Notes: generated by a model not told the origin, from the sequence alone. Positions 2,171 to 54,651 are shown, numbered from the stretch's first letter. The stretch: 64,000 nucleotides of DNA from Clostridia bacterium (GCA_017621695.1 JAGASP010000127.1:2681-66680), one strand, 5' to 3'. Numbers and translations are program-made.

Positions 2171-2240
2171 GAAAAACCTCCATTCCGTCGTCATGTGGCG
2201 ACGTAAGTATTCTTGAAACTTGACTATGATGTTGCACTCC

Positions 2241-6093: not shown

Positions 6094-6156
6094 TTCCGTT
6101 TACCGTTTAATCTGTTAACATATCACTTACACAAAATGAGGAAGGAAATAACCACC

Positions 6157-7140: not shown

Positions 7141-7155
7141 TTTTGGTGTTGCTCA

Positions 7156-12489: not shown

Positions 12490-12502
12490 GGAGGACAGTT
12501 GC

Positions 12503-14029: not shown

Positions 14030-14052
14030 CCCATCTCAAGGAGATAAAGATC

Positions 14053-16902: not shown

Positions 16903-16983
16903 GAGTTCGGATATTTTGAAAATTCAATCAGCCTCTTCGTGGCATCTGTCCGAAGAGGCTGACCCATGAAAGAAGGAATCATC

Positions 16984-18318
16984 ATGAATTTTAAAAAACT
17001 GATTGCAGGCTTATTGCTTATGAGCTTGCTGACCGCCTCTGCTGTAGCATTCTCCTCTTGTAGCAGCAACGAGGCAGAAAAAACAACCGAAGCTCCCGCA
17101 ACCGAGGCTTCCACACCTGCTGAAACGCAACCCGAGGAAACAGAGCCTGCAACCGAAGCTACTGTGGAGCTTGCCTGTAACCTTACCGTGACGGATCAGG
17201 ACGGAACGCCCATTCCTAACGCTACTGCATATCTTTCTCACAAAAACGGTCAGCTTGCACAGATTGCCGTGCAGCTGGATGAAAACGGTAAAGCGACCGT
17301 AACGCTTGCCACAGGTGCCTATACGGTGACCTATGAAAATCTTCCCGAGGGCCATCTTCCCGACGATACCACGCTGACTGTCGCATACGGAACCGCCGAC
17401 TATACTCTGAAGGTTCTCAACAATATCCCCAACGGTACGGCAGAAAGACCCTTTACCGTTACGGATGAAACGACCGAGGTGAAGATCCCCGCCAAAACCT
17501 CCTATACCTATGTGATGTTCAATGCCATGGACAGAACCATCGTCATTGAAAATACGACCCTAAAGGTAAGTTATAAGTCTGTAGAATATGCTCCCGATGA
17601 AAACGGAACGGTCAGCGTTCTTCTGACCAATGAATCTCCCCGTGATCCTGGTTATTTTACCCTCGTGAATGAGGGGGATGCCGAGGTGTCGGCAACCGTC
17701 AACATTCAGGCAACCGCAGGCTCCATGAACAATCCTTACGTCATCGAAGCCCTGGGCGAAAACGTTGTGGCTACGGTTCCGAAGAGTGCAACCGTATACT
17801 ACAAGTGGACGGCAACCCAAACGGGAGTTCTGATGCTTACCTCTCTTACGCCCAATAACTATATTGCCATGAGCAATTTGGCCAACTCTACGGTATCTTA
17901 CTTTACCAACGGCGAAGTTGCAACATACCTGAACGTCACGGCGGGAGATGAAATTCTCATCTCGGTTGCCAGCACCAAAACCGATGTGGACAGTATGGAA
18001 ATCACCTTCAAGCTGACCGAGCATACGGCTACGGTTGAGGATAGTATTCCTGTTTGGGAAGGTGAATTCGCCTTTACACTGACTGCGGGCGCTTCCTATA
18101 GCTTTACGACAGCAGAGGGCGTTTCTGTCGGTGCCTTGCAGGTAAAGGGACAAGGGATCAAGGTGACCTTCAACGGCGAGATCCTTGAACCCGATGAAAA
18201 GGGGATTGTCGATATTCTAGTAACCGGTGAAGGGAAAAATCTGAACCTCACGGTTGAAAATCAAAGCTCCGAGCGTCAGGAAATTACCGTTTCGATCATA
18301 GGCGCTCTCCAGCCTTAA
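16984..18318 (+). CDS. Lipoprotein, function unknown (last gene of the MoxR/vWA operon)
   Basis: Start moved to ATG 16984 (GAAAGAAGGA upstream). Signal/lipobox MNFKKLIAGLLLMSLLTASAVAFSSC. A Thr/Pro/Glu-rich linker follows, then a prealbumin/CarboxypepD_reg-like segment (LTVTDQDGTPIPNATAYL...GKATVTLATGAYTVTYENLPEG). Confidence 0.7.
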   Translation: MNFKKLIAGLLLMSLLTASAVAFSSCSSNEAEKTTEAPATEASTPAETQPEETEPATEATVELACNLTVTDQDGTPIPNATAYLSHKNGQLAQIAVQLDENGKATVTLATGAYTVTYENLPEGHLPDDTTLTVAYGTADYTLKVLNNIPNGTAERPFTVTDETTEVKIPAKTSYTYVMFNAMDRTIVIENTTLKVSYKSVEYAPDENGTVSVLLTNESPRDPGYFTLVNEGDAEVSATVNIQATAGSMNNPYVIEALGENVVATVPKSATVYYKWTATQTGVLMLTSLTPNNYIAMSNLANSTVSYFTNGEVATYLNVTAGDEILISVASTKTDVDSMEITFKLTEHTATVEDSIPVWEGEFAFTLTAGASYSFTTAEGVSVGALQVKGQGIKVTFNGEILEPDEKGIVDILVTGEGKNLNLTVENQSSERQEITVSIIGALQP

Positions 18319-23830: not shown

Positions 23831-26398
23831 ATGAAGAAGCTGCTTTTGATCGCAATTCTCATGCTCGCTCTGGTGATTACCGTTGTGGCTTGTACCGGTG
23901 ACAAAAACCCCGAAGACACCACGATTGGCGATACCACCGTCGAGACTCCTACCGAGACTCCTACCGAGACGCCCACAGAGGCTCCTACCGTAGAGCCTGA
24001 CGATCCCACCGAGGCTCCCACCTCAGAACCTGATGATCCCACCGAGGCTCCCACTATTGAGCCTGAGGATCCCACCGAGGCTCCTACTGCTGAGCCCGAC
24101 GATCCCACCGAGGCTCCTACTGTTGAGCCTGAGGATCCCACTGAGGCTCCTACTGAAGAACCCACCGAGGCTCCTACTGCCGATCCTGCTGATCCTGTGC
24201 TGATGCTGGAGCCCGAGGATCTCAACACGCTGGCCGGTGCCGCCGCGCCTAACGTGAACCAGATTGCCTCCTCTGAGGTCATCACCGAGGGTGACTACAC
24301 CTTCGCACGTCTGACCGCTGCTGCGGGTGGCGACCCCTACTTCGCATTCATTCCTCTGAACAGCAACTACATGCTGCCCCAGTACATGGCAATCTCCTAC
24401 CGTACCAATTCCACCACCGACGGTCAGGTCTTCCTGGGCTCCGGCACCGGTTGGAACGGTCAGGGAGACGTATTCAACGTTGCTTGGAATGAAGGCGATT
24501 GGAACTATATCGTGATCGATCTGTCCGCTCAGGGTTTGACCTCCATCACCGACGGTCTGCTCACCTACGCTCGTCTGGACTTTTTCGCGGGCGATTCTGC
24601 TGAGGGCGACTACTTCGATATTGAGTACATCGCATTCTTCAACACGGCCGAATACGCTGAGGCTTATGCTTTTGCCAAGCATCCTCCTTACATTGATGCC
24701 GACAACCCTGACGCAGGCAAGAAGAATCACTCCTTCGACACCTTCTACGTCAACGGCTCCATGTATTTCCCCGTGGACGGTGGTGCGGGCGATAAGCTGA
24801 CCGCGCAGAATAACACCCTTACCTTCGGTGCGGAGGATGCCCATGATTCTCTTGCTCTCCGCGGCTGGATCGGTTTTGATCAAGCAATCGACAGTTTTGG
24901 TTACTTTATTGATAACTACACCATGGTATACGGTGAGTTCAAGGCCGCTACCGAGGACGGTGTTCTGGCAGCCGGTGGCGCTAATGCTTCCCGTTTCCAG
25001 ATCGATGTTCCTCTTGCTGATCTGGAGGCCGGCGTGCATATGATCGGCTTTGTTGCAAAGCTGGCTGATGGTACCGTCGTTCGTCTCCGTGAAAATCTTA
25101 CCGTCATCATCGTTCCTTATACTGTTGATGAGACTGTTTCTTTGGCAACCGGTCACGGCGCACCCTTCAGCGGCGCTCCCAATAACTACTTTGGTCAGAG
25201 ATTTAACATCGGCGAGAATATCCTGAAGCAGATCACCATCACCGACATGGCCACTTATGCCGATGGCAACGTCAACACCTGGGTTGTTAAGATCTGGAAC
25301 TGGAATACCGACTATGCCACCACAACCGCAGGCGAGCCTCTGTATGTGGCAAACGGCGAAAATCATACTGACAACGCCCCCTTCGTTCTGAACGTTCCCG
25401 TAGAGGCGCTTATCACCGGCGACATCTACTACGAGATCACCTACGTGACCGGTAGCGGATGCTTTACCGGCTGGACTGCCGATAACGTCACCGAGGGCGT
25501 GGAAACCTATGTGGGTGGCGTGATTGCTAACGGAAGCTACAGTTCCTCCATCGTTGTGGGCGTCCCCACAGATGAGTCCGAAAAAGAGACCGTCATCTCT
25601 GTTGTGTTCGGTGAGATCTACACCGATGCGGATAAGGGCACTAAATTTGATGGCAATCTGATCCTTGAAAAGAATCTCGGCCCCACCTACTTCGACGGTG
25701 TTCGTACCGGCGACTGGATGGAGTTTAAGATCAACGTAGAGACTGCAGGCGACTACAACGTTTGCATGGTTTTCGGTTGGCTGGATCACACCGGCGTGTA
25801 TACCATTTTCGTAGATGGCGCAGAGGTCGGTAAGATCGAAAACAAGATCCCCGGTACCGATTGGAGAGCCTGGACGGATTCCTCCTCCATTAAGATCAAT
25901 CTGACCGAGGGTGAGCATACCGTTCGCGTGGTCATGGGCTCTGACGGCCCCAACGTGTATGGCGTCAAGTTTACATACGTTGAGCCCATGCCCGAAAGCA
26001 TTGCTTTGAATAAGCCCATTTCCGCCGACAGCGTTGAGAAGCCCCAGCACGAGGCAATCTACGCCAACGACGGTGATGAGAACACCCGTTGGTGCGGTCT
26101 GCCCAAGGGCGAAGCAAACCTGATTCTTGACCTTGAGGCGGTTTATACACTGGATAAAATTTATCTCCTGCTGGAGAATGCTATGGGCGACTTCACGATT
26201 TCCGTTTCCGAAAATGGTGAGGATTATACCGAGGTTTGCGCCTGCGAGGGCAAGCCTATGTCTCCTGTTGCGTTCACGCTGGAATTTGATATGAACGGTG
26301 CTACCGGCCGCTATATCAAGATTACTCGCAGTGCCGTCGACGATAACGTTGACTACTGGTTCTCCATTTACGAATTGTACGTATATCCCGTTCAGTAA
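23831..26398 (+). CDS. Surface lipoprotein with Pro/Thr/Glu linker, uncharacterised beta-rich modules, CBM6/35-like module and C-terminal F5/8 type C (CBM32-like) domain
   Basis: Signal/lipobox MKKLLLIAILMLALVITVVAC. CBM-like VVFGEIYTDADKGTKFDGNL...GDWMEFKINVETAGDYNV...GEHTVRVVMGSDGPNVYGVKFTYV. Discoidin-like end YANDGDENTRWCG...YIKITRSAVDDNVDYWFSIYELYVYP. Confidence 0.8.
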   Translation: MKKLLLIAILMLALVITVVACTGDKNPEDTTIGDTTVETPTETPTETPTEAPTVEPDDPTEAPTSEPDDPTEAPTIEPEDPTEAPTAEPDDPTEAPTVEPEDPTEAPTEEPTEAPTADPADPVLMLEPEDLNTLAGAAAPNVNQIASSEVITEGDYTFARLTAAAGGDPYFAFIPLNSNYMLPQYMAISYRTNSTTDGQVFLGSGTGWNGQGDVFNVAWNEGDWNYIVIDLSAQGLTSITDGLLTYARLDFFAGDSAEGDYFDIEYIAFFNTAEYAEAYAFAKHPPYIDADNPDAGKKNHSFDTFYVNGSMYFPVDGGAGDKLTAQNNTLTFGAEDAHDSLALRGWIGFDQAIDSFGYFIDNYTMVYGEFKAATEDGVLAAGGANASRFQIDVPLADLEAGVHMIGFVAKLADGTVVRLRENLTVIIVPYTVDETVSLATGHGAPFSGAPNNYFGQRFNIGENILKQITITDMATYADGNVNTWVVKIWNWNTDYATTTAGEPLYVANGENHTDNAPFVLNVPVEALITGDIYYEITYVTGSGCFTGWTADNVTEGVETYVGGVIANGSYSSSIVVGVPTDESEKETVISVVFGEIYTDADKGTKFDGNLILEKNLGPTYFDGVRTGDWMEFKINVETAGDYNVCMVFGWLDHTGVYTIFVDGAEVGKIENKIPGTDWRAWTDSSSIKINLTEGEHTVRVVMGSDGPNVYGVKFTYVEPMPESIALNKPISADSVEKPQHEAIYANDGDENTRWCGLPKGEANLILDLEAVYTLDKIYLLLENAMGDFTISVSENGEDYTEVCACEGKPMSPVAFTLEFDMNGATGRYIKITRSAVDDNVDYWFSIYELYVYPVQ
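23990..24154 (+). repeat. Five tandem 33-nt coding repeats (x-EP-[DE]-DPTEAPT linker)
   Basis: VEPDDPTEAPT / SEPDDPTEAPT / IEPEDPTEAPT / AEPDDPTEAPT / VEPEDPTEAPT. They are preceded by ETPT units and followed by a partial EEPTEAPT. Confidence 0.9.
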
Positions 26399-26561: not shown

Positions 26562-29500
26562 ATGAAAAAGCTAAATTTTAAACGAATTCTGGCAGCAACT
26601 CTGGCCGTTTTGCTCATCATGAGCAATTTCGCCGTTCTGCCCGTCATCGCGGAAGACGCGACTTCGGTCAGCGACTCACAAGTAACCGAAATCGTCTTTG
26701 GCGAGATCTTTACCGATGCCGACAAGGGTACCGCCTTCGGCGGCAACCTTTACCTTGAAAAAACCATGGGACCCGTTTATTTCGACGGTGTACGCAACGG
26801 GGACTTCTTTGAATTTGATATCAACATTGAGAAGGCAGGGAACTACGACCTGTGTTTCTCCTTCGGTTGGCTGGACGATACGGGCACCTATAACATTTCG
26901 CTGGATGGCGGTGATCCCGTTACCCTACGCAATACCGTGACGGGTCGCGGTTGGCGAACCTGGTGCGATTCCTCACGTGTGAAGGTCAATTTCACCCAGG
27001 GAAAGCACACCGTCCGTGTCACCATGGGCGGCGACGGCCCCAACCTGTATTCTATGAAACTGATCCCCGAGGGCGTGAATGCCGGGAGTAACGCCCAAAA
27101 TGACGCCGCTTTGCAGGATGAGAATTCTTCTGCCGGAGCCAAGGTGATCTCCTCCAGCGCGGCCATCCAGTTCAATTGCACCGCTACCTTTTTCGCGTTG
27201 GATCTTGCCTCCGCCAGCTGGAACAACAATCTCGGCTCTCTCCGTTTATCCCTGTATAAGTGGGACACTTCCTATGACAAGACCCTGAAGGGCGAGCCTC
27301 TCGCCTCCAAGGACTATATAGATTTCCCCGATAATACAGTCTTGACTTTTAGTTTTGACGATATGGAAGCAGGTGAATATCTGTTGTACATCAAGAATAT
27401 TTCCGAAAATCCCGCCGAGGAGGTGGGCTCTTGGGGTAATGAAAAGCCCCGTGAGAACGTCAGAAGCTACCACGCCGACGCGATCTCGGATTTCTGCCCC
27501 GCTGTGTGGCTGAAGTACAGATCCGACGCGGAAGCACCCTTCGGTCCCATCAGCGACGTGGATCCCAATGCCGTAGAACTGGCTCCCTCCGAGTCCGATC
27601 TCTATCCTTGGGGAGACACGGTGGAATACAAGATGAACGCCGACGCTCTGTACGGTGTGCAGTTCAACGCTACCGCCGACTTCGGAGGCGTTGAAGTCTA
27701 TATCCCCACCGTTCCCGTGGGCGACAACACCTTGACCCTGTCCCTTTATAAGTGGGATGGCAATTACAGTCAAACTGTCAAGGGTGAGCCCTTGACCACC
27801 ACGACTCTCAAAAACGTGAACAGAAGCAGTTGGGCACGTTTGCCATACTCGAAAGCCACCGTGGGTGAATATCTGCTTGTTGTATCCAATGGCACCGAGG
27901 GTATGACCGTCGGCTTTGTGGAGCAGGTCTCCGACAAGGCCAACCATTATCTCTACACTTCCAAAGCTGGCATCAGCCTTGTTGCCCGTACTGTGGGTAA
28001 CGCGGAGGTCACAGTTCCCACCGCCCCCACCGCCCAGGATTTCATCACAAATGATTCTGTTTACTGGGTGGGTACCGACGGTCTTGACCGTGTGCTACCC
28101 AATGCCTCAGAAACGGGTGAGAAGCGCGAAGGGAAGTATGTGGGTATTTTCTACCACACCTGGCACTCTGCCTTCGCCTACCGCGACGTTATCAACGTCA
28201 CCGAGCTGCTCAAGCAGTACCCCGAGGCAAAGAACGATTTCTATCATTCCGCATGGAACGGTCAGACCAACTGCTTCTGGAATGAACCTCTGTGGGGCTA
28301 CTACAACAACGGCATTGACCGCTGGGTACTCCGCAAGCAGGCCGAGCTTCTGGCCGACGCGGGGGTGGACGTGGTGTTCTTCGATAACACCAACGGCACC
28401 ATGAACTTCATCGACGCCATCCTCACCCTCTGCGAGGTCTGGGCAGAAGCCAGAGCCGATGGTGTGAGAACACCGCAGATCTCTGCCATGCTGAATATGT
28501 ATGCCTACAATGAGACGGCCATACAGATCAAGGAGCTGTACGATCGGATCTACTCCAAGGGCCTGTATCAGGATCTGTGGTTCTACTGGGATGAAAAGCC
28601 TTTGTTGCTTGCCTATCCCGAGGAGGTCAAGCGTCTGGAGAACGGCAAGGATATTTACAACTTCTTCTCCTACCGTCCCATCAACACCTCCTACAACGAA
28701 GATCAGGAGCTCATCAAGCAGAGCGAAGTATCCAACCGCATTACCTTCGCGCCTCCCGCAGGCTTCCGTAAGTATACCCAATGGAAGTGGATCTCGGTCT
28801 ATCCTCAGGAGAAGATGTACCTGAAAGGAACGAAGCAGGTCGAGGAGATGTGCGTATGCGTGGCGCAGAATTGGTCGGATAAGCAGGGACTGACCCCCAT
28901 GAACGCGGGCGATATGGTCTTTGGCCGTGGATATACCAACAAGTACGGCGTCAACACCTCGGATGAGGCTGTGATGGCGGGTCTGAACATTGCCGAGCAA
29001 TGGGAATACGTACTCGAAGTTGATCCTACCTTTGTGTATATCACCGGCTGGAACGAGTGGCAGGTGGGCCGCACCACTGAGATGTGGGGCTATCCCAACG
29101 CCTTGCCCGACAACGCCACCGACGGTTATTCCCGTGACATCGAGCCCTCCACGGGTATGTTGAAGGATCATTTCTACAATCAGATGGTGTCCTACATCCG
29201 CAAGTTCAAGGGCATGAATACCCAGCCCGTGTCCTCAGGGGCTGTCAAGGTGGATGCCGCCGCAGACATTGATTGGTCTGCCGTGACCCCCGTCTACCGC
29301 GCCTATGAAGGCAACACCCTCCACCGCGACTATGACGGCTACAAGGATTACCATTACACCAACACCACGGGTCGGAACGACTTCGTGGAGTCCCGAGTGA
29401 CCTATGACACCGAAAACCTTTACTTTATGGTCAAGACCGCCGAGGCTATCACGCCCCACACTGACAAGGCGTGGATGCGTCTCTTCATCGATGTGGTCGG

Positions 29501-30071
29501 AGTGGAGGATGACAAGAACTGGGAGACCTTTGAGTATATGCTCAACCGCGAAAATCCCACCGCCGACAAGGCCACGCTGGAGAGATCCACGGGCGGCTGG
29601 AACTGGGAGAAGGTGGCTGAGGTGGCCTATACCGTGGATAGTGATACCATGGTGGTGACCATCCCTCGCGCCGCGCTGGGAATTGGTGAAGATGACTTCA
29701 CCGTGAACTTCAAGTGGAGTGACAATATGCAGAAGGACGGCGACATCATGGAGTTCTACGTCAGCGGTGACGTGGCGCCCGGTGCGCGCTTCAAGTACAG
29801 CTTTACCTCTTTGAGCGCATCCGTAGAGGATCCTGAAACAAGCGCACCCTCCGAGACCGAAACCGTCCGTGAGCCTGAGTCTGTCGTTATAGGGACAGAT
29901 GACGAGACCGAAACCGTCCGTGAACCGGGTTCTTTCGTTGCAGAGACAGGCATTGAGACCCATCCTTCGGAGGATGAGGGCTGCCGTTCTGCCGTTGGTG
30001 CTACCTGCGTCGGTACTATGGTGGCTGCCGCTGCAGCCGTTGCACTGCGAAAAAAGAAAGAAGAAGAATAA
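26562..30071 (+). CDS. Giant secreted putative glycoside hydrolase: signal peptide, CBM6/35-like module, beta-rich modules, WNEW-type TIM-barrel-like domain, C-terminal beta-sandwich, GC-x-SA/TM/RKKK tail
   Basis: Signal peptide MKKLNFKRILAATLAVLLIMSNFAVLPVIAED. CBM-like IVFGEIFTDADKGTAFGGNL...GKHTVRVTMGGDGPNLYSMKLIP. Barrel-like YVGIFYHTWHS...WNEPLWGYYNNGIDRWVLRKQAELLADAGVDVVFFDNTNG...YITGWNEWQVG. Tail EDEGCRSAVGATCVGTMVAAAAAVALRKKKEEE. The enzyme family was not identified. Confidence 0.75.
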   Translation: MKKLNFKRILAATLAVLLIMSNFAVLPVIAEDATSVSDSQVTEIVFGEIFTDADKGTAFGGNLYLEKTMGPVYFDGVRNGDFFEFDINIEKAGNYDLCFSFGWLDDTGTYNISLDGGDPVTLRNTVTGRGWRTWCDSSRVKVNFTQGKHTVRVTMGGDGPNLYSMKLIPEGVNAGSNAQNDAALQDENSSAGAKVISSSAAIQFNCTATFFALDLASASWNNNLGSLRLSLYKWDTSYDKTLKGEPLASKDYIDFPDNTVLTFSFDDMEAGEYLLYIKNISENPAEEVGSWGNEKPRENVRSYHADAISDFCPAVWLKYRSDAEAPFGPISDVDPNAVELAPSESDLYPWGDTVEYKMNADALYGVQFNATADFGGVEVYIPTVPVGDNTLTLSLYKWDGNYSQTVKGEPLTTTTLKNVNRSSWARLPYSKATVGEYLLVVSNGTEGMTVGFVEQVSDKANHYLYTSKAGISLVARTVGNAEVTVPTAPTAQDFITNDSVYWVGTDGLDRVLPNASETGEKREGKYVGIFYHTWHSAFAYRDVINVTELLKQYPEAKNDFYHSAWNGQTNCFWNEPLWGYYNNGIDRWVLRKQAELLADAGVDVVFFDNTNGTMNFIDAILTLCEVWAEARADGVRTPQISAMLNMYAYNETAIQIKELYDRIYSKGLYQDLWFYWDEKPLLLAYPEEVKRLENGKDIYNFFSYRPINTSYNEDQELIKQSEVSNRITFAPPAGFRKYTQWKWISVYPQEKMYLKGTKQVEEMCVCVAQNWSDKQGLTPMNAGDMVFGRGYTNKYGVNTSDEAVMAGLNIAEQWEYVLEVDPTFVYITGWNEWQVGRTTEMWGYPNALPDNATDGYSRDIEPSTGMLKDHFYNQMVSYIRKFKGMNTQPVSSGAVKVDAAADIDWSAVTPVYRAYEGNTLHRDYDGYKDYHYTNTTGRNDFVESRVTYDTENLYFMVKTAEAITPHTDKAWMRLFIDVVGVEDDKNWETFEYMLNRENPTADKATLERSTGGWNWEKVAEVAYTVDSDTMVVTIPRAALGIGEDDFTVNFKWSDNMQKDGDIMEFYVSGDVAPGARFKYSFTSLSASVEDPETSAPSETETVREPESVVIGTDDETETVREPGSFVAETGIETHPSEDEGCRSAVGATCVGTMVAAAAAVALRKKKEEE

Positions 30072-30122
30072 CTCGAGAGTCTTTCTTTGAAACGTTCCAA
30101 TGCTTATGTGAACCCTTTCTAA

Positions 30123-30156
30123 ATGGGAGCTGCTCCCCCGCCCGTAAGGGTGGGGG
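30123..30156 (+). repeat. 34-nt intergenic repeat/hairpin, copy 1
   Basis: ATGGGAGCTGCTCCCCCGCCCGTAAGGGTGGGGG, identical to 34776-34809. It contains CCCCCGCCC, loop GTAA, GGGTGGGGG (a GNRA-type loop, one G-U pair) and an overlapping GGGAGC-T-GCTCCC palindrome. Confidence 0.9.
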
Positions 30157-30207
30157 CGTAAGCATTGCAAATGAAAAACAGCAAATTTATCGAAAGGAGA
30201 ATTCGTT

Positions 30208-31674
30208 ATGAAACGATGGCTTTCTTTTTTTATGGCATTTTTAATGCTTTTCTCCTTTGTTTCTTGTGCTACGGTTCAAGAGCCGGAGGATACCCAGGCC
30301 CAAACGGCAGAGGGAAACGTTTCTGCATCGGATGAGACAGAAGAGGAGGAAACTGATTTTTTCCCGGATATAGAGCGTAACGATTATAAGAAAGAGGTAT
30401 TCCGCATGATCGGTTTTGATGCCCCGGGTTACTGGTATTATTCCGAGGAATACAGTACGCAGCAGGGAAGTAGCCATATTCTTAACAATACCATCTACGA
30501 AATGAACACGCTTGTTGAGGAATACCTCAACGTAGAGCTCGAGTATGAGCAAATATCGCACGTCTCTACCGGCGGCGAGGTTTTTGATACGGTTCAAACC
30601 ACCATTATGTCGGGGGATGATGTTTATCAAATGTGTATTCTGCATCCGTATTACAGCTACACGAATTTTATTAATAAAAATTATGTGCTGGATTTTTACG
30701 AGCTTCCGGATGTGAATGTAGAACAGCCCTACTGGAATAAGGATGTGATGGAGAAGCTCTCCATCAACGATCACGCTTATATCGGTCTTGGCGATATTTG
30801 CAAATACACTGTTGGAATTATCTATTGTAACAAGGATATGCTGAATCATGCAGGACTTGCGGTTCCATATGATAAAGTTCGCAACGGCGATTGGACGCTG
30901 GATGAGTTCTTTTCCATGACGACAGGACTTTATTCCGATAACGGAGACGGCAACCGAGACAATAAGGACATTTATGGATTTGCCTCCTTGTGGGATGCCA
31001 ACGCTTCGTCTTTTATGCAGGCATGCGACATTTATATTGCCACACGGAATGAAGAGGGAATATTTGAGCTTTCCATGTACGGAGATCGGTTGGTCAATAT
31101 GTACGATAAGCTTTATAACTGGACCCAAAATGAAAGCACATATATTTGGAACTTTGCGAATAAGTACAACGATAGCGTAAATATTGATTTTTTAAACAGT
31201 CAAGCCTATTTTACTCATGCTGATCTGGGAACGCAATATCTATCCGCAGAGTTTGATGTGGGTATGTTACCTATGCCTAAATACGACAAGCAGCAAGAGG
31301 AATATGCTCATGTGAACTGGGGTAACAACATCGTCCTGCCCAGTACCATTAAGAATACGGAAATGGTCGGTCAAGTGTTGGAGCTCATGGGGTACTACTC
31401 AAAGACCATGGTACAACAGAAGTATTATGATGAAGTTCTTAAACTGCGTGTATCCGATGCGCCCGATGATCGCGACATGGTAGAGCTTATTTACAATACC
31501 ATTGTATATGATCCCGGTATTGCATTCTGCGACGGTAATACCGCACTTTGGAATCTTGTCTACTTGCCTTGTTTTGCGGTCCATAACAACTCAGAGAGTA
31601 TCGCATCCTATTACAAGGGCAATTCGAGAAGTGCTGAACGCTGGCTTACGAATCTTTTTAAAGAAAAAAATTAA
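30208..31674 (+). CDS. Extracellular solute-binding lipoprotein (family-1 ABC SBP-like), no cognate permease genes nearby
   Basis: Signal/lipobox MKRWLSFFMAFLMLFSFVSC. Size (~490 aa), the acidic linker and the overall pattern resemble the large sugar-binding lipoproteins of Firmicutes polysaccharide loci. The assignment is by resemblance only. Confidence 0.5.
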   Translation: MKRWLSFFMAFLMLFSFVSCATVQEPEDTQAQTAEGNVSASDETEEEETDFFPDIERNDYKKEVFRMIGFDAPGYWYYSEEYSTQQGSSHILNNTIYEMNTLVEEYLNVELEYEQISHVSTGGEVFDTVQTTIMSGDDVYQMCILHPYYSYTNFINKNYVLDFYELPDVNVEQPYWNKDVMEKLSINDHAYIGLGDICKYTVGIIYCNKDMLNHAGLAVPYDKVRNGDWTLDEFFSMTTGLYSDNGDGNRDNKDIYGFASLWDANASSFMQACDIYIATRNEEGIFELSMYGDRLVNMYDKLYNWTQNESTYIWNFANKYNDSVNIDFLNSQAYFTHADLGTQYLSAEFDVGMLPMPKYDKQQEEYAHVNWGNNIVLPSTIKNTEMVGQVLELMGYYSKTMVQQKYYDEVLKLRVSDAPDDRDMVELIYNTIVYDPGIAFCDGNTALWNLVYLPCFAVHNNSESIASYYKGNSRSAERWLTNLFKEKN

Positions 31675-31691
31675 GGAATACAAAATAACGT

Positions 31692-34688
31692 ATGAAACAT
31701 CCAAAAAAACGTGGGTGGCGTTCTGCCGTCTGCTATCTTGTTGTTGGGGTTATGATTATGTCTACTGTGATACCCGCTATTTTGCCTCCTCTTAGGAGCT
31801 TTGCAGAGGAAAACAGTTACGAGGCTAAGAAAGCCGCGTATCGCGCAAAGCTCAAAAACGATGACGTGACTACCGATGATCTGCTCATAGGTTCATGGGT
31901 ATCCTTCTATTCTTTTGAGAAGGACAGTTATGAATATCAGTTGGATCAGATGGCTGCGGCCGGTATTAATTTCAATATGTTCCCCCGTGATTTTGGTGCG
32001 GGTGCTATGTATGATGCGGAATATTGGAACAACGTAGAAGAGCAGTATGCCAAACGAAACATGATTTATCTTATGAACGGTAACATGGATGCGGCAAATA
32101 TTGCTATTGGCGTAAAATATGCTGCCGGCAAGGAACATTGCGTCGGTTATCATGTCGTAGATGAGCCCGGCGGTGCAGCTTTACAAGGCGTTGCGGATAT
32201 TATGCGTGAGTACCGCAAAGCAGATCCTGCCCGCTATCCCTATACCAATCTCCTCCCCAGCTATGCGGGAAGCGCTTGGTTAGGAGGATCATATCGAGAG
32301 CACGTTGAGCGTTACGTGGCATTGGTGGGTGCAGAGAACATGGAATACCTGTCCCACGACTTCTATCCCTTCCAATCAAGGGGGAATAACACCGGCATTT
32401 TTGCCGACATGGAAGTGCTTCGCTCGGTAGCCTATGAAAACGGCAAACTTAAAACCCATGCTTTTCCGCAATCGACAGCATGGAACGGTATGCGAATGCC
32501 TAACATTGATGAAATGCGCTGGAACGTTTATGCTTATCTTTCTTATGGCTTCAAGGCGCTTTCTTGGTTCAATCTTGTCTGCCCCGGAAATTCTGACACC
32601 GAGGGTGAGGGATTCCGAGATAGTTTGATCTACAGAGACGGTACCATTCGCGATCCCGAGCTTTTCGCCGCATGGAGCGAATTGAACTGGGAAATCCGAG
32701 GTCTGTCCGATGCGCTCATGAATTTGGATACAGTTCACGCATATCATACAGACAACGCCGTGTCAGGTGTGGAATATTTACCCGCTGACTTCTTTATCGT
32801 CCCCGACGGACGAGCAGACTTTGTCATTAGCTATATGGTAGCCAAAGACGGTACCGAACCCTATATGATGCTTTTCAATAAGTCCCTGCGACGTGGCGCC
32901 GATATGGAGTTCTTTGTGGATCTGTCTACGGGGATTGAAACGATAGAATATCTGGATCCGTATACGGGCGAGTACATTCCCATGGATATTTCGGAGGGAA
33001 AGCTCAGCGATTCTTTTGAGATCGGTCAAGGTAAGCTTTATCGTCTGAAGGGTGACTTCGCGTTGAGCGAAACGCCTCCCGAGGTACCTTCGGTTGATCT
33101 TGCGAGCGGTCTTTACGATGGGCCTCAAAGCGTGACGATCACTCCACCTGTTGAGGGCGCAAAGGTCTATTATACGTTGGACGGTTCGTATCCCACAGCA
33201 GAGTCTACTCTTTATGAAGGTCCCATCACCATCGGTAACACCGGTGAAGCTTCCTTCCACACGCTCCGTGTGGCGACCGTCAGAGGTGCTTCTATTAGTA
33301 AGGTTCTGACTCGCCACTACGTCATCAGCAATATTTCCACAGACGGTTCAGAGGCACATTCTCTTGCCAAAGTACCCATTGATAAGGTGCTTTCTGTGGG
33401 TAATTGGAGTACCTCAGACGGGAAAATTTCACTCAAGGGCGGCGCTGACGATGCATTGTTGAATTTCTTTATAGACACGTCTGTGACCTACGAAAATTTT
33501 CATGCTACAGGCCATTTCCGCTTTAACGAGGGATGCGGTTCAAATGCCTCTGCCGGCTTTTTCATAAAAGCCTCCGAGGGAGATGCTCATCTCTATGTCG
33601 GCATTACGCGAGGAGGTAATCTTAACGTATATTGCAACGGTAAACGGATCCAGCTTCCGGATGTTCAAGGTAAGACCGTAAATGTGTTGGATGGATTCAC
33701 TCTATGTGTAACGCTCGCAGGGAAGCGTCTGCGAATTGAAGCCAACGGACAACTGCTCAGCGAAACCGTATCGGATCAGTTCGCCATCCAAGGTTGTGTA
33801 GGGGTCAATGCTACGGAGAACGGTGTTTTTACCGCCGAATCGGTCTATTTTACACCTTTGGCATCTGCCGCTCCCGAGATACAACTCGCGATGACCAAGG
33901 TACAAGACGATCCCTTGACTCTCGTTGTGAATCGCGGTATCTCCAAAGAGGAACTCCTCGAAAAACTGCCCGAAACGGCCAAGTTTTCAGACGAGGAAGG
34001 AAAAACGGCGGGATATACCTTGACATGGGAAATGGAGGAACTTGATACATCTTCGGGTGGAACGTATGTTCTGAAGGGCTATCCTGACATTCCCGATGGA
34101 AGCTTGACAGTAAATCCTTTACAACTGTCTCTCCGTTGCACGCTTATCATTCTCCATAACCCTGATCGTACTGAGTTAAATGATGCCATTTATCTCATGG
34201 CATCCCTCAGAGAAGAGGATTATTCTCCCGAAACGTGGGCTGAGGCCGAACAAGCTTATGAAAATGCCTTGGGGCTTATGGATGCCGATGTTCCGCAAAA
34301 TGCAGTAACCGTGGCAACCGTGTTCCTAATGGAAAAAATAAACGCCTTAAATCCCACGGGTATTGACTTTACTGCATTGGATGTTGTCATTGCTTCTCTC
34401 AAGGCCTATGATCTGTCGGGGATAAACAACGAAACACGAAACGCTGTTGAACAGATTCTTGCTGAAGCTGAAGCTTTCAGTCGTACAGGTCCCGTGACCC
34501 AGAACGCAGTCAATGATCTGGTCGCCCAATTGACCGCTACCGAGGAAGCTTTGAAAACAGCGGAAACGGTTACCGAAAATAACGTAGAGGAATCTGGTTG
34601 TTCTTCTGCCATGGGGACTACTTGCGCTGGAATTATTCTGACGACAGGTGCCGCTGTGGCGCTTAGGAAAAAGAAAGAAACCCAATAG
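31692..34688 (+). CDS. Giant secreted putative glycoside hydrolase: TIM-barrel-like N-domain, CHB_HEX_C-like, LamG/DUF1080-like, FIVAR-like helices, GC-x-SA/TM/RKKK tail
   Basis: Signal/TM MKHPKKRGWRSAVCYLVVGVMIMSTVIPAILPPLRSFAEE. GYHVVDEPGG and YPYTNLLPSYA...LSHDFYPF (clan GH-A-like by eye). SGLYDGPQSVTITPPVEGAKVYYTLDGSYPT (chitobiase C-terminal-like). PDRTELNDAIYLMASLREEDYSPETWAEAEQAYENA (FIVAR-like). Tail VEESGCSSAMGTTCAGIILTTGAAVALRKKKETQ. Confidence 0.7.
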   Translation: MKHPKKRGWRSAVCYLVVGVMIMSTVIPAILPPLRSFAEENSYEAKKAAYRAKLKNDDVTTDDLLIGSWVSFYSFEKDSYEYQLDQMAAAGINFNMFPRDFGAGAMYDAEYWNNVEEQYAKRNMIYLMNGNMDAANIAIGVKYAAGKEHCVGYHVVDEPGGAALQGVADIMREYRKADPARYPYTNLLPSYAGSAWLGGSYREHVERYVALVGAENMEYLSHDFYPFQSRGNNTGIFADMEVLRSVAYENGKLKTHAFPQSTAWNGMRMPNIDEMRWNVYAYLSYGFKALSWFNLVCPGNSDTEGEGFRDSLIYRDGTIRDPELFAAWSELNWEIRGLSDALMNLDTVHAYHTDNAVSGVEYLPADFFIVPDGRADFVISYMVAKDGTEPYMMLFNKSLRRGADMEFFVDLSTGIETIEYLDPYTGEYIPMDISEGKLSDSFEIGQGKLYRLKGDFALSETPPEVPSVDLASGLYDGPQSVTITPPVEGAKVYYTLDGSYPTAESTLYEGPITIGNTGEASFHTLRVATVRGASISKVLTRHYVISNISTDGSEAHSLAKVPIDKVLSVGNWSTSDGKISLKGGADDALLNFFIDTSVTYENFHATGHFRFNEGCGSNASAGFFIKASEGDAHLYVGITRGGNLNVYCNGKRIQLPDVQGKTVNVLDGFTLCVTLAGKRLRIEANGQLLSETVSDQFAIQGCVGVNATENGVFTAESVYFTPLASAAPEIQLAMTKVQDDPLTLVVNRGISKEELLEKLPETAKFSDEEGKTAGYTLTWEMEELDTSSGGTYVLKGYPDIPDGSLTVNPLQLSLRCTLIILHNPDRTELNDAIYLMASLREEDYSPETWAEAEQAYENALGLMDADVPQNAVTVATVFLMEKINALNPTGIDFTALDVVIASLKAYDLSGINNETRNAVEQILAEAEAFSRTGPVTQNAVNDLVAQLTATEEALKTAETVTENNVEESGCSSAMGTTCAGIILTTGAAVALRKKKETQ

Positions 34689-44037: not shown

Positions 44038-47000
44038 TTAACTCTGTACCTCAACGTTACGAATCACGGCCATAATGCAAAGGCCGTCGGAATCCTCGTT
44101 GGGAACGAGAGCAAAGACCACGTCTATTGTCTTTCCGCTGTAAGCGGAGAGATCGGCGCAGACACCCGAGGGAGCGCCCTCGGTGCCTTGAAAAACGATC
44201 TTGTCGGGATGGGTGGCCACGTCATAGCCCGTGGAGGAGAAGAAGTGCTTGGCGGAATCATGAATGCCGGGATTGCCCGTCACGTCCGAGAAGCCGCCTC
44301 GGTTGTACAGGGTGCACTCGTTCCAGGTCTTGCCGCCGTCGGCCGTCCACATATACTTGTCGATACCGCCCTCGGCGATGGCCCAGCCCGCCAGGGCCAG
44401 CTTGCCACCGTCCACGGTGGCGTTCTTGTAGTCGATGAAGTCCAGGGGCTTATCCGAGTTGGTGCCGCGGGAGTTATAAGGGCCGTCCCCGTCGCCGTTG
44501 CCGTTGATGAAGTCGATCATGGAGGCGTAGCGCACGTCGGAGACCGTCCAGCCCGAGTTGGGATCCACGTAGTAGCCGGGGCTGGTGCTGTCGTCGGCCT
44601 CGGGAGCCTCCCCCGTGGAGAAGTCGATGGTGCCCGCAATGGCGCCGCCCTTGTAGATCTCACCCACACCCTTGGTGTTGAGTCGGCAGATATCCTCCAG
44701 GCTGTCGGCCAGACCCAGGTAGGCAATATCCACGTAGGTCTCGGGGGAGGTGGTGACGTTGAAGACGTCGAAGCGGACGTGGAGAGCGGTGTAGGAGCCC
44801 GAGGAGTCGGGAGCGAAGGTAGGGAGATGCTGATCCGCCACGTCCACCAAAAGCACGTGCCAGTTCCCATCAGCGATCAGCTCGTTGACGTGGAAGCTGT
44901 CCCCCGCGTGGGCATCGGAATGCTCAGTGCTGGTGAAGAACTCGAACTGCACCGCCTCGGCGTTCTCCTTGGGCAGACGGTACTTCACCGCCAGGTACTG
45001 ACCCGTGGGGCTTATATCCGAGTTGGAGTAGGCCTGGAAGAAGGCCTCGCTCGCGGCGTCCCCGGGACCGTAGAGACGGACGTAGGTCTTGTCCTCGGAA
45101 AGCTCGGCCTTGCCGGGGAAGTTGGAGGTTTTGGCAGCCTGATACAGCACCTCGGCCTCGTGATAGACGTTCATGGAGTTGGTCAGAATGTCCTCCTCGG
45201 AGCTTGGCCAGCCTGCAAAGTCGGCGTCGGCCACGATCTTGAAGGTGCGGCTCTCGACACCGTCCATATTGAAGGCGAAGGCGTAGGAGTAGGTGCCGTT
45301 CCGATCGTAATAGACGGTATAGCCGTCGTAGTAGTGGGCGTGGCCCTTCTTGTCGGGGGTCTTGGAGGAGTTGACCATCAGCTCTATCCACTTGCCGTCC
45401 ACCTTCTCGTAGACCGTAGGCGCGGTCAACTTCTCAAAGCCGTACACGCGGACGGCCTTGTAACTTACGCCGCCCGATACGGTGAACTCAGCGGACTTGC
45501 CGTTTAAGGACTTGACCTTGGGCAGATACACGCTCTCCATAGCCTCGCCGTCCTGCACCGTCAGCTTCAGACCGTTCAGACAGGTGTTTTCGCGTATCTT
45601 CTGCATATTGCTGTCATCGGTGGAATCATAGAAGCCCCAGGGGGAGATGACGAGGCAGAGCTTCATGGTGTCGCCCTTCTTGAGGGTGACGGCGTCCAGA
45701 TCCAGGGACAGGCTGTATTTGGCGTTGGCGCCCACCATGACGAAGTCCGCGTCGCACTTCTGACCGCCGATGGTGAAGTCGGAGTCGTAGATCATGAAGC
45801 CCAGGTTGACGTTGTTCTTCTCCCAGCCCGAGGCGGCGTTGCCCAGATCGTACAGCGCCACGTAGGGGAAGAGATCGCCCAGCTTGAGCACCTCGGGGAC
45901 AGCCTTCATGTTGGTGTTGCCGTGGATGATCTGATTGCCCTCGCCCAGGTAGCCGATCTTCTGATATTTGCCCGCGTAGCCCTCCAGGGAGTAGAAGGAG
46001 AAATCGTGGGAGAAGTCGGCGATGGAGATATCCTCCAGCACCTCGTAGTGGATCTCGTAGTAGGCGCGAAGCTCGTCAGTCTCGGGCATCTCCAGATGGT
46101 TGTAACTCACCTTGATGCGGCCGTCGTCCGAGATATAGTCCATCTTGACGTCGGTGTAGACGGGACCCGAGGAGAGGATGGTGTTTTGGTAGTTCTCGGT
46201 GGCGGCGTAACCTCCGTCCTTGTCGGTGTACTGGAGGAAGTACTGGTAGCCGCCGTGGGTATGCTGGGGCTGGTTGCTGTAGCCCTCGCCTTCGGGAAGC
46301 TCGAACCAGTAGGGCATGGACATGGAGCGGAAGTCGGGGAGGGTCCAGAGGTCACGGGCACCGTACAGCGGGCTGATACAGCTGGTCTCGGTGGTGCCCA
46401 GAGACAGGTGGTAGTAGGGCCAGAAGAACTGGATGGAGGAGAGCTGCTTCAGCGGCACAAGACCCCAGTTCATGTAAAGGTTGAGTACCGTCAGCTCGGT
46501 GGTGGAGCCCGCCTTCACCGAAACGGGGAAGTAGGACTCGGAGTAGGAGGGATCCCCGGGATCGAAGACGGGCTCCTCGTTCTCGCCCTTGAAGTTCTTG
46601 TAGATCATGACGGGGATGGGCAGGAGCATATCGTTCTTGTCCAGGATCAGGGCGTTCTCACAGCATCCGCTGGTGGCGTAGGTGTAAGCGTAAATGGTGC
46701 GGTCGCTCTCTCCGCCCTGGACGGTCACGTCCGAAGTGTAGTGGCGGTTCTGCTCGGTGAAGAAGGGCTCGTTGAAGCCGGTGCCGCCGATGTTGAACCT
46801 GTAGGCACCGCGGAGTACATCATAACCCGCGTAGGAGCTACCGCTGACCGTCTCCAGAGGATGCCGCTCAAACTCGGCCTCGCGGAGGAAGTCGGTAAAG
46901 TCGTGGGTCTGATCCGTGTAGAGGCGATGACCCATGTAGAAGTCGTCGGCGGTGGTATTGGGATCGAAATGGATCACACCGCCCTCGGGCTTCGCGGTCT

Positions 47001-48330
47001 GGGTGACGGTATAGATACCGTCCGCGAGAGTCACCTCTAGCCTGCCGCTGTTCTCGTGGGGCAGGAGGATGAAGCCCAGGATACCCGCGTCTTTTACGTC
47101 AAAGGCCAAATACTCGCAGGTGGCGAAGTCCACGTCCTCAAGGGAATCGTGCGTCCCCTTGGCGTCCTTGACTACCAGCTTGGCCACCTTGTCGGCGGGG
47201 ATATCGGTCACCATACCCAGGGCTTCGATGCCCGAGACCTCCTGGGTGGCAACGAAGTGAAGCACCTGGTTCATCTTGTCGGAGTAGGTGTGGAAGGTGC
47301 GGTCCAAAAGGAGCGCGGGCGCCTCGGTGTTGAGCTTGACGGCCTTGATGTCCTTGATCTGGATCTGCTCGCCGTCACTGCCGATGTCGAAGCGCAGGGA
47401 GGTGACTACACCATAGTAGTCCTCCACGGTGTTGACAGCCACGGTGTAGGTGTTCCACTCGCCGTTGGCCTCCAGATCGAAGCGCACCTGCTGCTCGGAG
47501 CTGTGGCCGTTGCGGTCGCCCGCGATGAAGTAGAGGTAGCCCTCGCTGGAGGAGGCGGCCTTCACCGAGAACTGCACGGCGTTGTACTCCTCGGCGGGGA
47601 AGCTGTAGCCCTCCCGCCCCTTGTTGAGAGGGGTATAGACATAGGGATCGACGCCCGTGGCGGTGTAGGTGATGACCCCATCTTTGACCGAGAACTCTCT
47701 CACGTCGTGATTCTTGATGGAGGCTTTATTGATAATGAAATCCATCTCCTTGACCACGCTGGAGCCGCCCATGAAGTTCTGCCCCATGATATGGGTGTCG
47801 TAGTAGTAGTAGCCCATGCGGTAAACGTTGGTATGGGGAGCGGCGGTGGACTGGGAGGCCATGTAGGTCTTGCCGTTCTCCATGCGGATGAAAACGTCCA
47901 TGGTGTTCTCCAGATAGACCTTACCGTCGGGGGTGGTCAGGGAGGTCACCAGATTATCCTTGGAGGAGGAGAGGGCGTACTCCAGGGACATATTTTGGTT
48001 CTCGATGCGGTAATGTGTACGGCGGGGGTTCCCGTAGTAGGCCTGCACGCCGTTTGAAAGGCGGTTTGACAGCATGATGGTGTCGGCGTAGGGGCCGGTA
48101 ATCACAGGCTCAACGTACGTATCGTTACCTTCGGTTTCTTTCTCGGTTTCAGCAGAAGTTTCTCCTTCGGGTACCTCGTTGGTATCTGTGATGCCCTCGC
48201 TATTGGGGGAAGTCGTGTCGGGCGTGCTTGTTTGTTCGGAAGACGCATCTTCGCTCTTGCAAGATGTGAGCAAACCGCACATCATGAGAGAAAGGCAAAG
48301 TGTTGTCAGTAAAAAATGCTTCAGCTTCAT
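44038..48330 (-). CDS. 1430-aa surface lipoprotein, function unknown
   Basis: Signal/lipobox MKLKHFLLTTLCLSLMMCGLLTSC with SD AAAGGAA. A Ser/Thr/Glu-rich linker is followed by beta-rich sequence with no catalytic motif I recognise. It contains modules similar to one in the 23831-26398 lipoprotein. Confidence 0.75.
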   Translation of the reverse strand: MKLKHFLLTTLCLSLMMCGLLTSCKSEDASSEQTSTPDTTSPNSEGITDTNEVPEGETSAETEKETEGNDTYVEPVITGPYADTIMLSNRLSNGVQAYYGNPRRTHYRIENQNMSLEYALSSSKDNLVTSLTTPDGKVYLENTMDVFIRMENGKTYMASQSTAAPHTNVYRMGYYYYDTHIMGQNFMGGSSVVKEMDFIINKASIKNHDVREFSVKDGVITYTATGVDPYVYTPLNKGREGYSFPAEEYNAVQFSVKAASSSEGYLYFIAGDRNGHSSEQQVRFDLEANGEWNTYTVAVNTVEDYYGVVTSLRFDIGSDGEQIQIKDIKAVKLNTEAPALLLDRTFHTYSDKMNQVLHFVATQEVSGIEALGMVTDIPADKVAKLVVKDAKGTHDSLEDVDFATCEYLAFDVKDAGILGFILLPHENSGRLEVTLADGIYTVTQTAKPEGGVIHFDPNTTADDFYMGHRLYTDQTHDFTDFLREAEFERHPLETVSGSSYAGYDVLRGAYRFNIGGTGFNEPFFTEQNRHYTSDVTVQGGESDRTIYAYTYATSGCCENALILDKNDMLLPIPVMIYKNFKGENEEPVFDPGDPSYSESYFPVSVKAGSTTELTVLNLYMNWGLVPLKQLSSIQFFWPYYHLSLGTTETSCISPLYGARDLWTLPDFRSMSMPYWFELPEGEGYSNQPQHTHGGYQYFLQYTDKDGGYAATENYQNTILSSGPVYTDVKMDYISDDGRIKVSYNHLEMPETDELRAYYEIHYEVLEDISIADFSHDFSFYSLEGYAGKYQKIGYLGEGNQIIHGNTNMKAVPEVLKLGDLFPYVALYDLGNAASGWEKNNVNLGFMIYDSDFTIGGQKCDADFVMVGANAKYSLSLDLDAVTLKKGDTMKLCLVISPWGFYDSTDDSNMQKIRENTCLNGLKLTVQDGEAMESVYLPKVKSLNGKSAEFTVSGGVSYKAVRVYGFEKLTAPTVYEKVDGKWIELMVNSSKTPDKKGHAHYYDGYTVYYDRNGTYSYAFAFNMDGVESRTFKIVADADFAGWPSSEEDILTNSMNVYHEAEVLYQAAKTSNFPGKAELSEDKTYVRLYGPGDAASEAFFQAYSNSDISPTGQYLAVKYRLPKENAEAVQFEFFTSTEHSDAHAGDSFHVNELIADGNWHVLLVDVADQHLPTFAPDSSGSYTALHVRFDVFNVTTSPETYVDIAYLGLADSLEDICRLNTKGVGEIYKGGAIAGTIDFSTGEAPEADDSTSPGYYVDPNSGWTVSDVRYASMIDFINGNGDGDGPYNSRGTNSDKPLDFIDYKNATVDGGKLALAGWAIAEGGIDKYMWTADGGKTWNECTLYNRGGFSDVTGNPGIHDSAKHFFSSTGYDVATHPDKIVFQGTEGAPSGVCADLSAYSGKTIDVVFALVPNEDSDGLCIMAVIRNVEVQS

Positions 48331-50986: not shown

Positions 50987-51026
50987 ATAAAATACCAAAC
51001 CTTTCTGTTGGTGAAGCTTTTTATTT

Positions 51027-51055
51027 ATTATACCATATTTACCAAAAATAAGCAA
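51027..51055 (-). promoter_or_regulatory. Sigma-A-type promoter of the GH43 gene
   Basis: Minus strand reads TTGCTT (51055-51050), a 17-nt spacer, then TATAAT (51032-51027). Confidence 0.55.
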
Positions 51056-54596: not shown

Positions 54597-54651
54597 TGAC
54601 ACGTAGTCACAATGTATTGTACCGTCGCATGACGGTGGAATGGAGATGAAA

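Follow-up and report, generated by a model that had tools for sequence, protein, structure and literature searches.

The 64,000-nucleotide stretch of DNA analysed here (referred to as the window), which comes from a Clostridia bacterium (GCA_017621695.1, JAGASP010000127.1:2681-66680), encodes two large exported proteins, W1 and W2, that end in the same kind of short C-terminal tail. This tail is most likely a Cys-type tripartite sorting or anchoring signal of uncultured Clostridia that has no model in current libraries, and it is given the working name GC-x-S CTERM. Its layout comprises an acidic Thr/Pro/Glu linker, the signature [K/E/D]-[K/S/G]-G-C-x-S, about 19 small or hydrophobic residues and a basic cluster, [RK]3-4, followed by 0-6 residues and the stop codon; the invariant Gly-Cys pair (G-C) sits two to three residues before the minimal helix, and the basic stub of 3-4 residues is placed at the very end. 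There is little doubt that the tail is a genuine, conserved and portable anchoring domain in which G-C is functional. By analogy with the MYXO-CTERM signals, the tail may moreover be lipidated and cleaved, a reading to which a probability of roughly 0.55 is assigned; that the protease acting on it is a CPBP enzyme is a distinctly more doubtful proposal.

Translation of 29850-30071 and 34467-34688 reproduces exactly the two tails as they were quoted in the initial annotation of this DNA, which was made from the sequence alone, and in both of them the tripartite layout described there is found, i.e., a signature, one helix and a basic cluster at the extreme C-terminus. When the full proteins were compared by BLASTP, the single significant segment was formed by the last 52 residues (48% identity, E=1e-8) and no other segment was better than E=0.27, so that W1 and W2 are indeed unrelated outside the tail. 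No third tail of this kind was found in the window by a six-frame scan. The DNA sequences of the two tails differ at many synonymous sites (GGC TGC versus GGT TGT; CTG CGA versus CTT AGG), and because of this synonymous divergence the likeness must be regarded as one that is kept at the protein level, and not as a product of recent duplication or gene conversion. The hydrophobic stretch, initially put at about 12 residues, is 19 residues long in both tails; it was undercounted because the x-G-x-T-C-x-G part of the motif then proposed lies inside the start of the helix.

The conservation of the signature was established on 75 G-C tails that were picked by their protein bodies, and not by the tail. 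Gly at position -1 and Cys at position 0 are present in 75/75 of these tails (4.32 bits each) and Ser at +2 in 64/75 (3.57 bits), and no further position exceeds 2.4 bits. The family consensus reads as a Thr/Glu/Pro/Ala linker, then [K/E/D]-[S/K/G]-G-C-[G>A,S,K,R]-S-[V/A]-[I/V/L]-G-[F/G/M]-[G/S]-A...AAAAVAL-KKK-[D/E], with 24-30 residues from the Cys to the protein end. Of the extended motif that had been proposed, G-C and Ser at +2 thus hold family-wide, whereas the second Cys and the ending AAVALRKKKE are specific to one lineage, so that the motif overstates the conservation; the second Cys (+8) and AAVALRKKK were seen in no tails but those of W1, W2 and the orthologues closest to them (P0001, P0269, P0270, P0279). 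G-C, the helix and the basic cluster are kept in 36/36 full-length W1 orthologues. Among the W2 homologues, which were retrieved via their catalytic bodies, with the tail taking no part in the selection, there are 38 clusters whose C-terminus consists of [K/S/R]-G-C-x-[S/A/G] followed by a hydrophobic segment and basic residues, and the sequence of the helix drifts freely among them. Unrelated proteins of one lineage have a common tail flavour, which their orthologues in other lineages do not have. The same lineage flavour was described for MYXO-CTERM, where it was ascribed to co-evolution with the sorting enzyme of the lineage (Haft 2023, bioRxiv 10.1101/2023.06.07.544157), and by this analogy the flavour of the Clostridial tails would be the expected outcome if they co-evolved with a single recognition partner specific to the lineage.

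The presence of G-C is also linked to protein export. Among homologues with a signal peptide and a helical tail, G-C occurs in 36/38 members of the W1 family and in 37/40 members of the W2 family. Helix-tailed W2 homologues divide into G-C and non-G-C forms 37/3 when a signal peptide is present and 1/75 when it is absent (Fisher p=1.3e-25), and since G-C tracks the signal peptide in this way, the pair is kept only where the motif would face the outside of the membrane. The 1/75 group is a paralogous branch with a Cys-less tail (KGILPAAVATLAGAVAG...KKKK). This large branch of the W2 family (P0031, P0033, P0036-P0119), of which there is no copy in the window, starts at strand 1 of the barrel (MKKNTTNKFLIGSWVSFYPF) and ends in a Cys-less helix followed by KKKK; its members are either tail-anchored, with a cytoplasmic glycoside hydrolase (GH)-like domain, or exported by an unknown route.

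How far does the tail spread beyond W1 and W2? A profile made of the 38 W2-homologue tails was compared, with no word index in use, to 1.84 billion representative proteins, which gave 582 clusters (50% identity) at E<=1e-3. G-C is present in 146 of the 148 best new matches, a count that is partly circular, as the profile itself rewards G-C. In all but two of these 148 the match runs to within a few residues of the protein end, a position that chance matches to a hydrophobic profile would not take. Carriers of at least 250 aa fall, with the tail removed, into at least 22 groups that are unrelated by BLAST, and several carriers occur per genome, which agrees with the portable C-terminal module assumed at the outset. 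The domains recognized on representative carriers are of an extracellular type and include Laminin_G_3, Big_2, the Listeria-Bacteroides repeat (List_Bact_rpt), NAGPA, F5/8 type C and pectate-lyase-like adhesive domains. Signal peptides were found in 112/122 carriers, and the remainder are by look mostly fragments or proteins with mis-called starts.

A scan of GTDB species genomes, seeded with nine near-canonical tails and hence biased to GCGSVIGF-type tails, revealed 13 tail loci, all in metagenome-assembled genomes (MAGs) of uncultured Clostridia, named as Eubacteriales bacterium, Clostridia bacterium, Candidatus Scatosoma, uncultured Clostridium and uncultured Lachnospiraceae. Ten more tail genes, often in tandem, are located in the flanks of these loci. 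When tails were counted per genome, as the initial annotation had suggested, at least eight were found in one MAG (fecal_MAG_145), four in one 12-kb stretch of RGIG4611, and four together with a D-C variant in the SGB_1696 MAG. A scan of metagenome contigs added four short loci, and all named sources of the tail are uncultured Clostridia. Variant signatures were noted at L016 (9941-11203 and 6109-7959), L007 (456-1802) and L012 (713-2470). Some very short proteins, such as P0122 (65 aa) and P0192 (62 aa), consist of an N-terminal lipobox signal peptide, a short Pro/Glu/Lys linker, the G-C tail and little else; if both of their ends are processed, proteins of this type would be lipid-anchored at each end.

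The window tails, the 38 homologue tails and a set of 67 family tails were compared with NCBIfam release 20 (June 2026) and Pfam, and no model was reached at cutoff in any per-sequence table; the scan with sorting-domain hidden Markov models (HMMs) that the initial annotation had called for thus gave no match at cutoff to an already described sorting-signal model. The scores of the window tails were 12.9-14.6 with a cutoff of 23.5 for NF033846, 13.4 with 15.9 for TIGR01167 and 13.5-15.5 with 20 for PF00746. One of the 67 tails (E=1.7e-5) may just pass NF033846. The closest resemblance is to Cys-containing CTERM signals, as had been proposed. Synerg-CTERM (TIGR04564) aligns G-C itself and matches 5/38 and 7/67 tails (17.0-19.3 bits with a cutoff of 22.5, best E=3.3e-4); JDVT-CTERM (NF033191) matches 3/38 tails weakly (best E=1.3e-4), and MYXO-CTERM (TIGR03901 / TIGR03382) one or two of the 38 or 67 tails (E=0.006-0.06). 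Neither Synerg-CTERM nor the two MYXO-CTERM models match the window tails, and CGP-CTERM (TIGR04288) is not among the families matched by the 38 or 67 tails. Several MYXO-CTERM protein families also appear among the weak cross-matches. Full-text searches of the literature gave no description of a Clostridial Cys-type tail, and the survey of such systems is without mention of Firmicutes (Haft 2023, bioRxiv 10.1101/2023.06.07.544157).

The nearest known system in its architecture is MYXO-CTERM/MrtX (TIGR03901, TIGR03382 'GC_trans_RRR'), which is likewise tripartite, has an invariant Gly-Cys just before a single helix and a basic cluster, sometimes contains a second Cys, and is present on many unrelated Sec-exported surface proteins per genome that are unlinked to the sorting enzyme. 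The tail differs from it by a Lys-rich, not Arg-rich, stub, by Ser at +2, with G-C-x-S in the place of GCGC, and by scores under the HMM cutoffs; GCGC is rare in the tail family, where only P0314 comes near it (GCNGC), and the Cys itself is as invariant as in MYXO-CTERM. MYXO-CTERM is limited to Myxococcota with MrtX/MrtC/MrtP, whereas all named tail carriers are Clostridia, in which no such orthologue was found. As these hosts have a single membrane, a step at an outer membrane or a type II secretion system (T2SS) does not arise, unlike in MYXO-CTERM. Synerg-CTERM/MrtS, the closest model that aligns the Cys, is a short domain in which a small Gly/Ser cluster ends in an invariant Cys before the helix; it is found in Synergistales only, co-occurs with a special T2SS, and has an invariant Pro in a Leu-rich helix, whereas in the tail family the helix is Ala/Gly/Val-rich and Pro at +10 occurs in only 16/75. 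JDVT-CTERM is marked by a DP motif ahead of the helix and by a single target, located beside MrtJ; the tail has no DP, and no CPBP gene adjoins it in the window. The archaeal PGF-CTERM/ArtA and CGP-CTERM/MrtA systems are similar in principle, since a C-terminal tripartite signal is swapped for a lipid anchor in single-membrane cells, but their motifs differ (PGF; C-G-P), they belong to another domain of life and they matched at chance level only. In CGP-CTERM, known from Thermococcales, Gly-Pro stands right after the Cys, whereas the tail has G/K/R/S/A at +1 and Ser at +2.

The tail can also be compared with the lipobox that is recognized by Lgt and LspA, with which it has in common G/A at -1, an invariant Cys, G/S at +1/+2 and a location at the outer-leaflet end of a single helix. 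The lipobox proper, [LVI][ASTVI][GAS]-C, closes the h-region of an N-terminal signal peptide. In the tail this arrangement is inverted, as the helix follows the Cys, and positions -3/-2 are K/E/D/S and not Leu/Ala; in this orientation LspA could not cleave at the tail Cys. The other exported proteins of the window are almost all classical N-terminal lipoproteins, in which the lipobox Cys is followed by a Thr/Pro/Glu linker (Table 1). Since lipoproteins predominate among the exports and G-C-[G/S]-S fits positions -1 to +3 of the lipobox, the G-C-x-S tail is the mirror image of the main anchoring mode of this organism, which is in line with the lipidation proposed below. Within the locus only W1 and W2 combine a signal peptidase I-type signal peptide with a C-terminal Cys tail.

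The following model can be drawn from these comparisons. After Sec export the C-terminal helix would stop the transfer, so that, by topology rules, the protein would lie on the outer side and the Lys cluster on the cytoplasmic side, with the helix spanning the membrane between them. The Gly-Cys would then lie two to three residues outside the outer leaflet, i.e., at the place of the lipobox Cys in mirror orientation. The Cys thiol would be lipid-modified, with Lgt or an Lgt-like enzyme as the leading candidate by analogy with MYXO-CTERM and the myxosortases. It was shown that MrtX, a CPBP/Rce1-type enzyme, cleaves MYXO-CTERM in a Cys-dependent manner, also in E. coli, and prior lipidation by Lgt was proposed (Guo, Haft & Wall 2025, PMC11980579). 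In the Clostridial case an intramembrane protease encoded elsewhere, most plausibly a glutamic endopeptidase of the CPBP/Rce1 type, would remove the helix and the basic stub. A lipid at its C-terminus would finally hold the enzyme on the single membrane, and the linker would reach across the wall.

Several observations weigh against lipidation and cleavage of the tail. One set comes from the search for a processing partner, in which CPBP motifs in multi-helix open reading frames (ORFs), the TLxTC motif and Pfam tables for seven neighbourhoods were used. No sortase, CPBP, rhomboid or exosortase gene was found in the window, where the initial annotation had already seen neither sortase nor exosortase, or in about 60 kb of the parent contig, and none was found in three further tail-gene neighbourhoods; 12/13 genome loci are without a CPBP candidate. 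The remaining locus, L014 from an uncultured Lachnospiraceae MAG, encodes an Rce1-like CPBP protease (8225-9292, minus strand; PF02517, 73.9 bits) about 2 kb from the tail gene at 4690-6087, but it was rejected as a partner, for the protein is generic and under all NCBIfam Mrt cutoffs, and one neighbour in 13 loci is within chance because the phylum is rich in CPBP paralogues. A sorting enzyme of the housekeeping type is, however, expected to be unlinked to its targets (Haft 2023, bioRxiv 10.1101/2023.06.07.544157). The Cys-type CTERM systems known so far come from archaea or from bacteria with two membranes and are linked to export by a T2SS, for which there is no counterpart in the present case. 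Recognition of the tail by Lgt is speculative, because the residues at -3/-2 are charged, unlike those of the lipobox. The signature is also not uniform, as D-C-S-S replaces G-C in L016 and a recurrent ...AKYGCT[GA][SA] (Y-G-C-T) form is seen that has no acidic linker; both may be sub-classes of the signal. To this the circular part of the G-C count in the profile matches has to be added.

On two independent contigs (L019 11743-12588; L020 1779-2624), the gene immediately downstream of P0038, a W2 homologue with the tail, codes for a radical SAM/SPASM protein of 281 aa. It was considered as a Cys-modifying enzyme and set aside, since it has no equivalent beside W1 or W2.

Another explanation, a serious rival although a less probable one, is that the tail is an unprocessed type I membrane anchor and that the juxtamembrane Gly-Cys serves another purpose, for which S-acylation or diacylglycerol addition in the absence of cleavage, a disulfide bond with a partner or with a second copy, and attachment to a wall polymer are conceivable. 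Such an anchor would account for the full-length 19-residue helix with its positive-inside stub and for the failure to find a processing enzyme in the window, the parent-contig flanks or the other tail neighbourhoods searched, and the Cys-less helical tails that occupy the same position in P0014, P0020, P0308 and P0309 indicate that a simple anchor can suffice. The very short stub, the strict placement at the extreme C-terminus, the constancy of G-C, with Ser at +2, in hundreds of clusters and the lineage flavour are, on the other hand, hallmarks of a signal that is recognized by an enzyme. The start of the helix may also argue against a plain anchor, as it is rich in Gly, Ser and Ala (G at +5, G/S at +7), and such a start is typical of substrates of intramembrane proteases. 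An anchor private to W1 and W2, whether duplicated or alike by chance, has a negligible probability: the two tails are closer to each other (53% over 45 aa) than either is to the family consensus, but the 582 clusters, the synonymous divergence of the tail DNAs and the W1 and W2 orthologues that carry the tail elsewhere with other helix sequences refute this explanation.

It is improbable, too, that the tail is a divergent sortase signal, in which x-G-C-G/S would take the place of (L/N)PxTG and lead to peptidoglycan linkage. Like the tail, the LPXTG and Rumino_NPXTG signals occur in Gram-positive hosts and run in order from linker and motif to helix and Lys-rich stub; sortases are in use in the host phylum, which has a single membrane, and in the alignment the Gly that follows the Cys falls on the G of NPXTG (profile position 5). 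Rumino_NPXTG (NF033846) is furthermore the commonest sub-threshold match (22/67 tails), and LPXTG_anchor and Gram_pos_anchor match as well. The sortase-type alignments, however, begin past the Cys and comprise only the helix and the Lys stub (profile positions 5-30 of 30), and typical family tails reach at most 19.9 bits, whereas the cutoff is 23.5. The (L/N/S)PxTG pentapeptide is missing, with neither Pro nor Thr at the motif positions and Cys at the place of Thr; LPXTG itself does not occur in either window tail or in the family consensus, as had been recognized at the outset. The tail-bearing loci, 348 kb in all, contain neither a TLxTC-type sortase nor an xPxTG tail, although a sortase of the housekeeping kind could be encoded elsewhere. 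Even less probable is a divergent member of Synerg-CTERM, JDVT-CTERM or MYXO-CTERM with a known Mrt partner. The weak matches to these families speak for it, but all the bit-scored ones are under the curated cutoffs, the defining extras (DP motif, invariant helix Pro, GCGC, GP after the Cys) are all missing from the tail family, and the hosts are Clostridia, and not Synergistota, Proteobacteria, Myxococcota or Thermococcales, with no MrtJ-type neighbour.

Table 1. Features of W1, W2 and the lipoproteins of the window (positions counted from its first nucleotide)
Feature	Position	Strand	Description
Gene W1	26562-30071	+	Intact ORF, 1169 aa; exported multidomain carbohydrate-active protein bearing the tail
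W1 signal peptide	26562-26651	+	Sec-type, MKKLNFKRILAATLAVLLIMSNFAVLPVIA; direct reading and hydrophobicity heuristic, putative cleavage site
W1 linker	29817-29978	+	Acidic, Thr/Glu/Pro-rich, internal ETETVREP repeat, predicted disordered
W1 signature	29979-29990	+	G-C-R-S (invariant Gly-Cys, Ser at +2)
W1 transmembrane segment	29991-30047	+	19 residues, AVGATCVGTMVAAAAAVAL, with lineage-specific second Cys
W1 basic stub	30048-30071	+	RKKK (30048-30059), then EEE and stop; predicted cytoplasmic
Gene W2	31692-34688	+	Intact ORF, 998 aa; exported glycoside-hydrolase-like protein bearing the tail
W2 signal peptide	31692-31805	+	Sec-type, MKHPKKRGWRSAVCYLVVGVMIMSTVIPAILPPLRSFA; putative cleavage site
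W2 signature	34596-34607	+	G-C-S-S
W2 transmembrane segment	34608-34664	+	19 residues, AMGTTCAGIILTTGAAVAL
W2 basic stub	34665-34688	+	RKKK (34665-34676), then ETQ and stop
Lipoprotein	13990-16902		
Lipoprotein	16966-18318		
Lipoprotein	23831-26398		
Lipoprotein	30208-31674		
Lipoprotein	44038-48330	-	1430 aa, without recorded Pfam match
Lipoprotein	48407-51055	-	
Lipoprotein	52436-54412	-	
Lipoprotein	54640-57042		
Lipobox sites of the lipoproteins			...VVAC/TGD, ...FVSC/ATV, ...LTSC/KSE, ...LASC/RSE, ...LFAC/TQN, ...VAAC/TNN, ...FSSC/SSN, ...LTAC/QSG

W1 and W2 had been termed enzymes, a name that stands as far as the predicted folds go (a clan GH-A-like barrel in W2; modules similar to carbohydrate-binding modules (CBMs) of the CBM6/35 type and a weakly GH99/GH71-like barrel in W1); on these models a role of both as surface enzymes is plausible. 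W1 has a CBM_6 match in Pfam, and its model contains three CBM6/35-like sandwiches and an alpha/beta barrel with weak GH99/GH71 likeness. The C-terminal ~85 residues of W1 are disordered in the model, with a predicted local distance difference test (pLDDT) score of ~27-30 from residue 1086 on, and an imperfect tandem repeat, SETETVREPESVV / DETETVREPGSFV, is present in the linker directly ahead of the signature. W2 contains CHB_HEX_C_1 and Fn3_assoc domains (Pfam), and its N-terminal 490 aa were modelled as a TIM barrel with a beta-sandwich (pLDDT 89.8). Because this model matches GH140, GH5, GH51 and GH66 structures, at 10-12% identity, W2 is classified, on its predicted fold, as a clan GH-A-like hydrolase for which Pfam has no family. 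Sequence searches of the PDB with W1 and W2 gave nothing useful, and the NCBI names of W2-cluster members are internal domain or hypothetical protein.

The window corresponds to positions 40884-104883 of a 138-kb metagenome-assembled contig (ENA ERZ28654748, scaffold_280), and the close homologues of W1 and W2 are labelled as Clostridia, Oscillospiraceae or Ruminococcaceae MAGs. The neighbourhood of the two genes is a glycan-degradation locus with GH123, GH2, GH43 and GH99-like genes, AraC regulators and CBM-bearing proteins. At ~6100-12500 there is a Bat-like operon (MoxR AAA ATPase / DUF58 / BatA-VWA / VWA), followed by large proteins without a recorded Pfam match. The GC content of the window is elsewhere ~0.50 and rises to 0.59 at 44038-48330 (minus strand) and to 0.58 at 1-4000; at ~59-64 kb it falls to 0.457. 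The DNA cytosine methylase encoded at 62869-63951 is present in 201 blocks of the assembly collection, and on another contig it stands beside genes for DUF4314, a second methyltransferase, MazE-like, YodL and SpoVG proteins. The wide distribution of the methylase and its gene company on that contig suggest that ~59-64 kb of the window is a widely shared mobile element.

What would the tail mean for the bacteria that carry it? It may be proposed, at present tentatively, that uncultured gut Clostridia sort proteins by a C-terminal pathway of the Cys type, which would be the first in a phylum of bacteria with one membrane and in which a 'mirror lipobox' is lipidated, possibly by Lgt, and the helix is clipped by an intramembrane protease, giving surface enzymes that are lipid-anchored at the C-terminus. 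Cys-containing tripartite signals were tied to CPBP 'myxosortases' only in 2023-2025 and have so far been described in double-membrane bacteria and Thermococcales. If the proposal is true, the Clostridial pathway is a minimal form of the MYXO-CTERM type, with no outer membrane or T2SS, and offers a tractable route to the lipidation step; such a one-membrane, T2SS-free system would ease the study of the Cys chemistry. Should the tail be an uncleaved anchor, it is still a highly specific marker for the surface proteins of this lineage. The Clostridial family would bring the Cys-type class to Bacillota, on glycan-degrading and adhesin-like surface proteins of abundant uncultured gut bacteria, and a model of the tail would fill an annotation gap and tell which enzymes of gut microbes are displayed on the surface.

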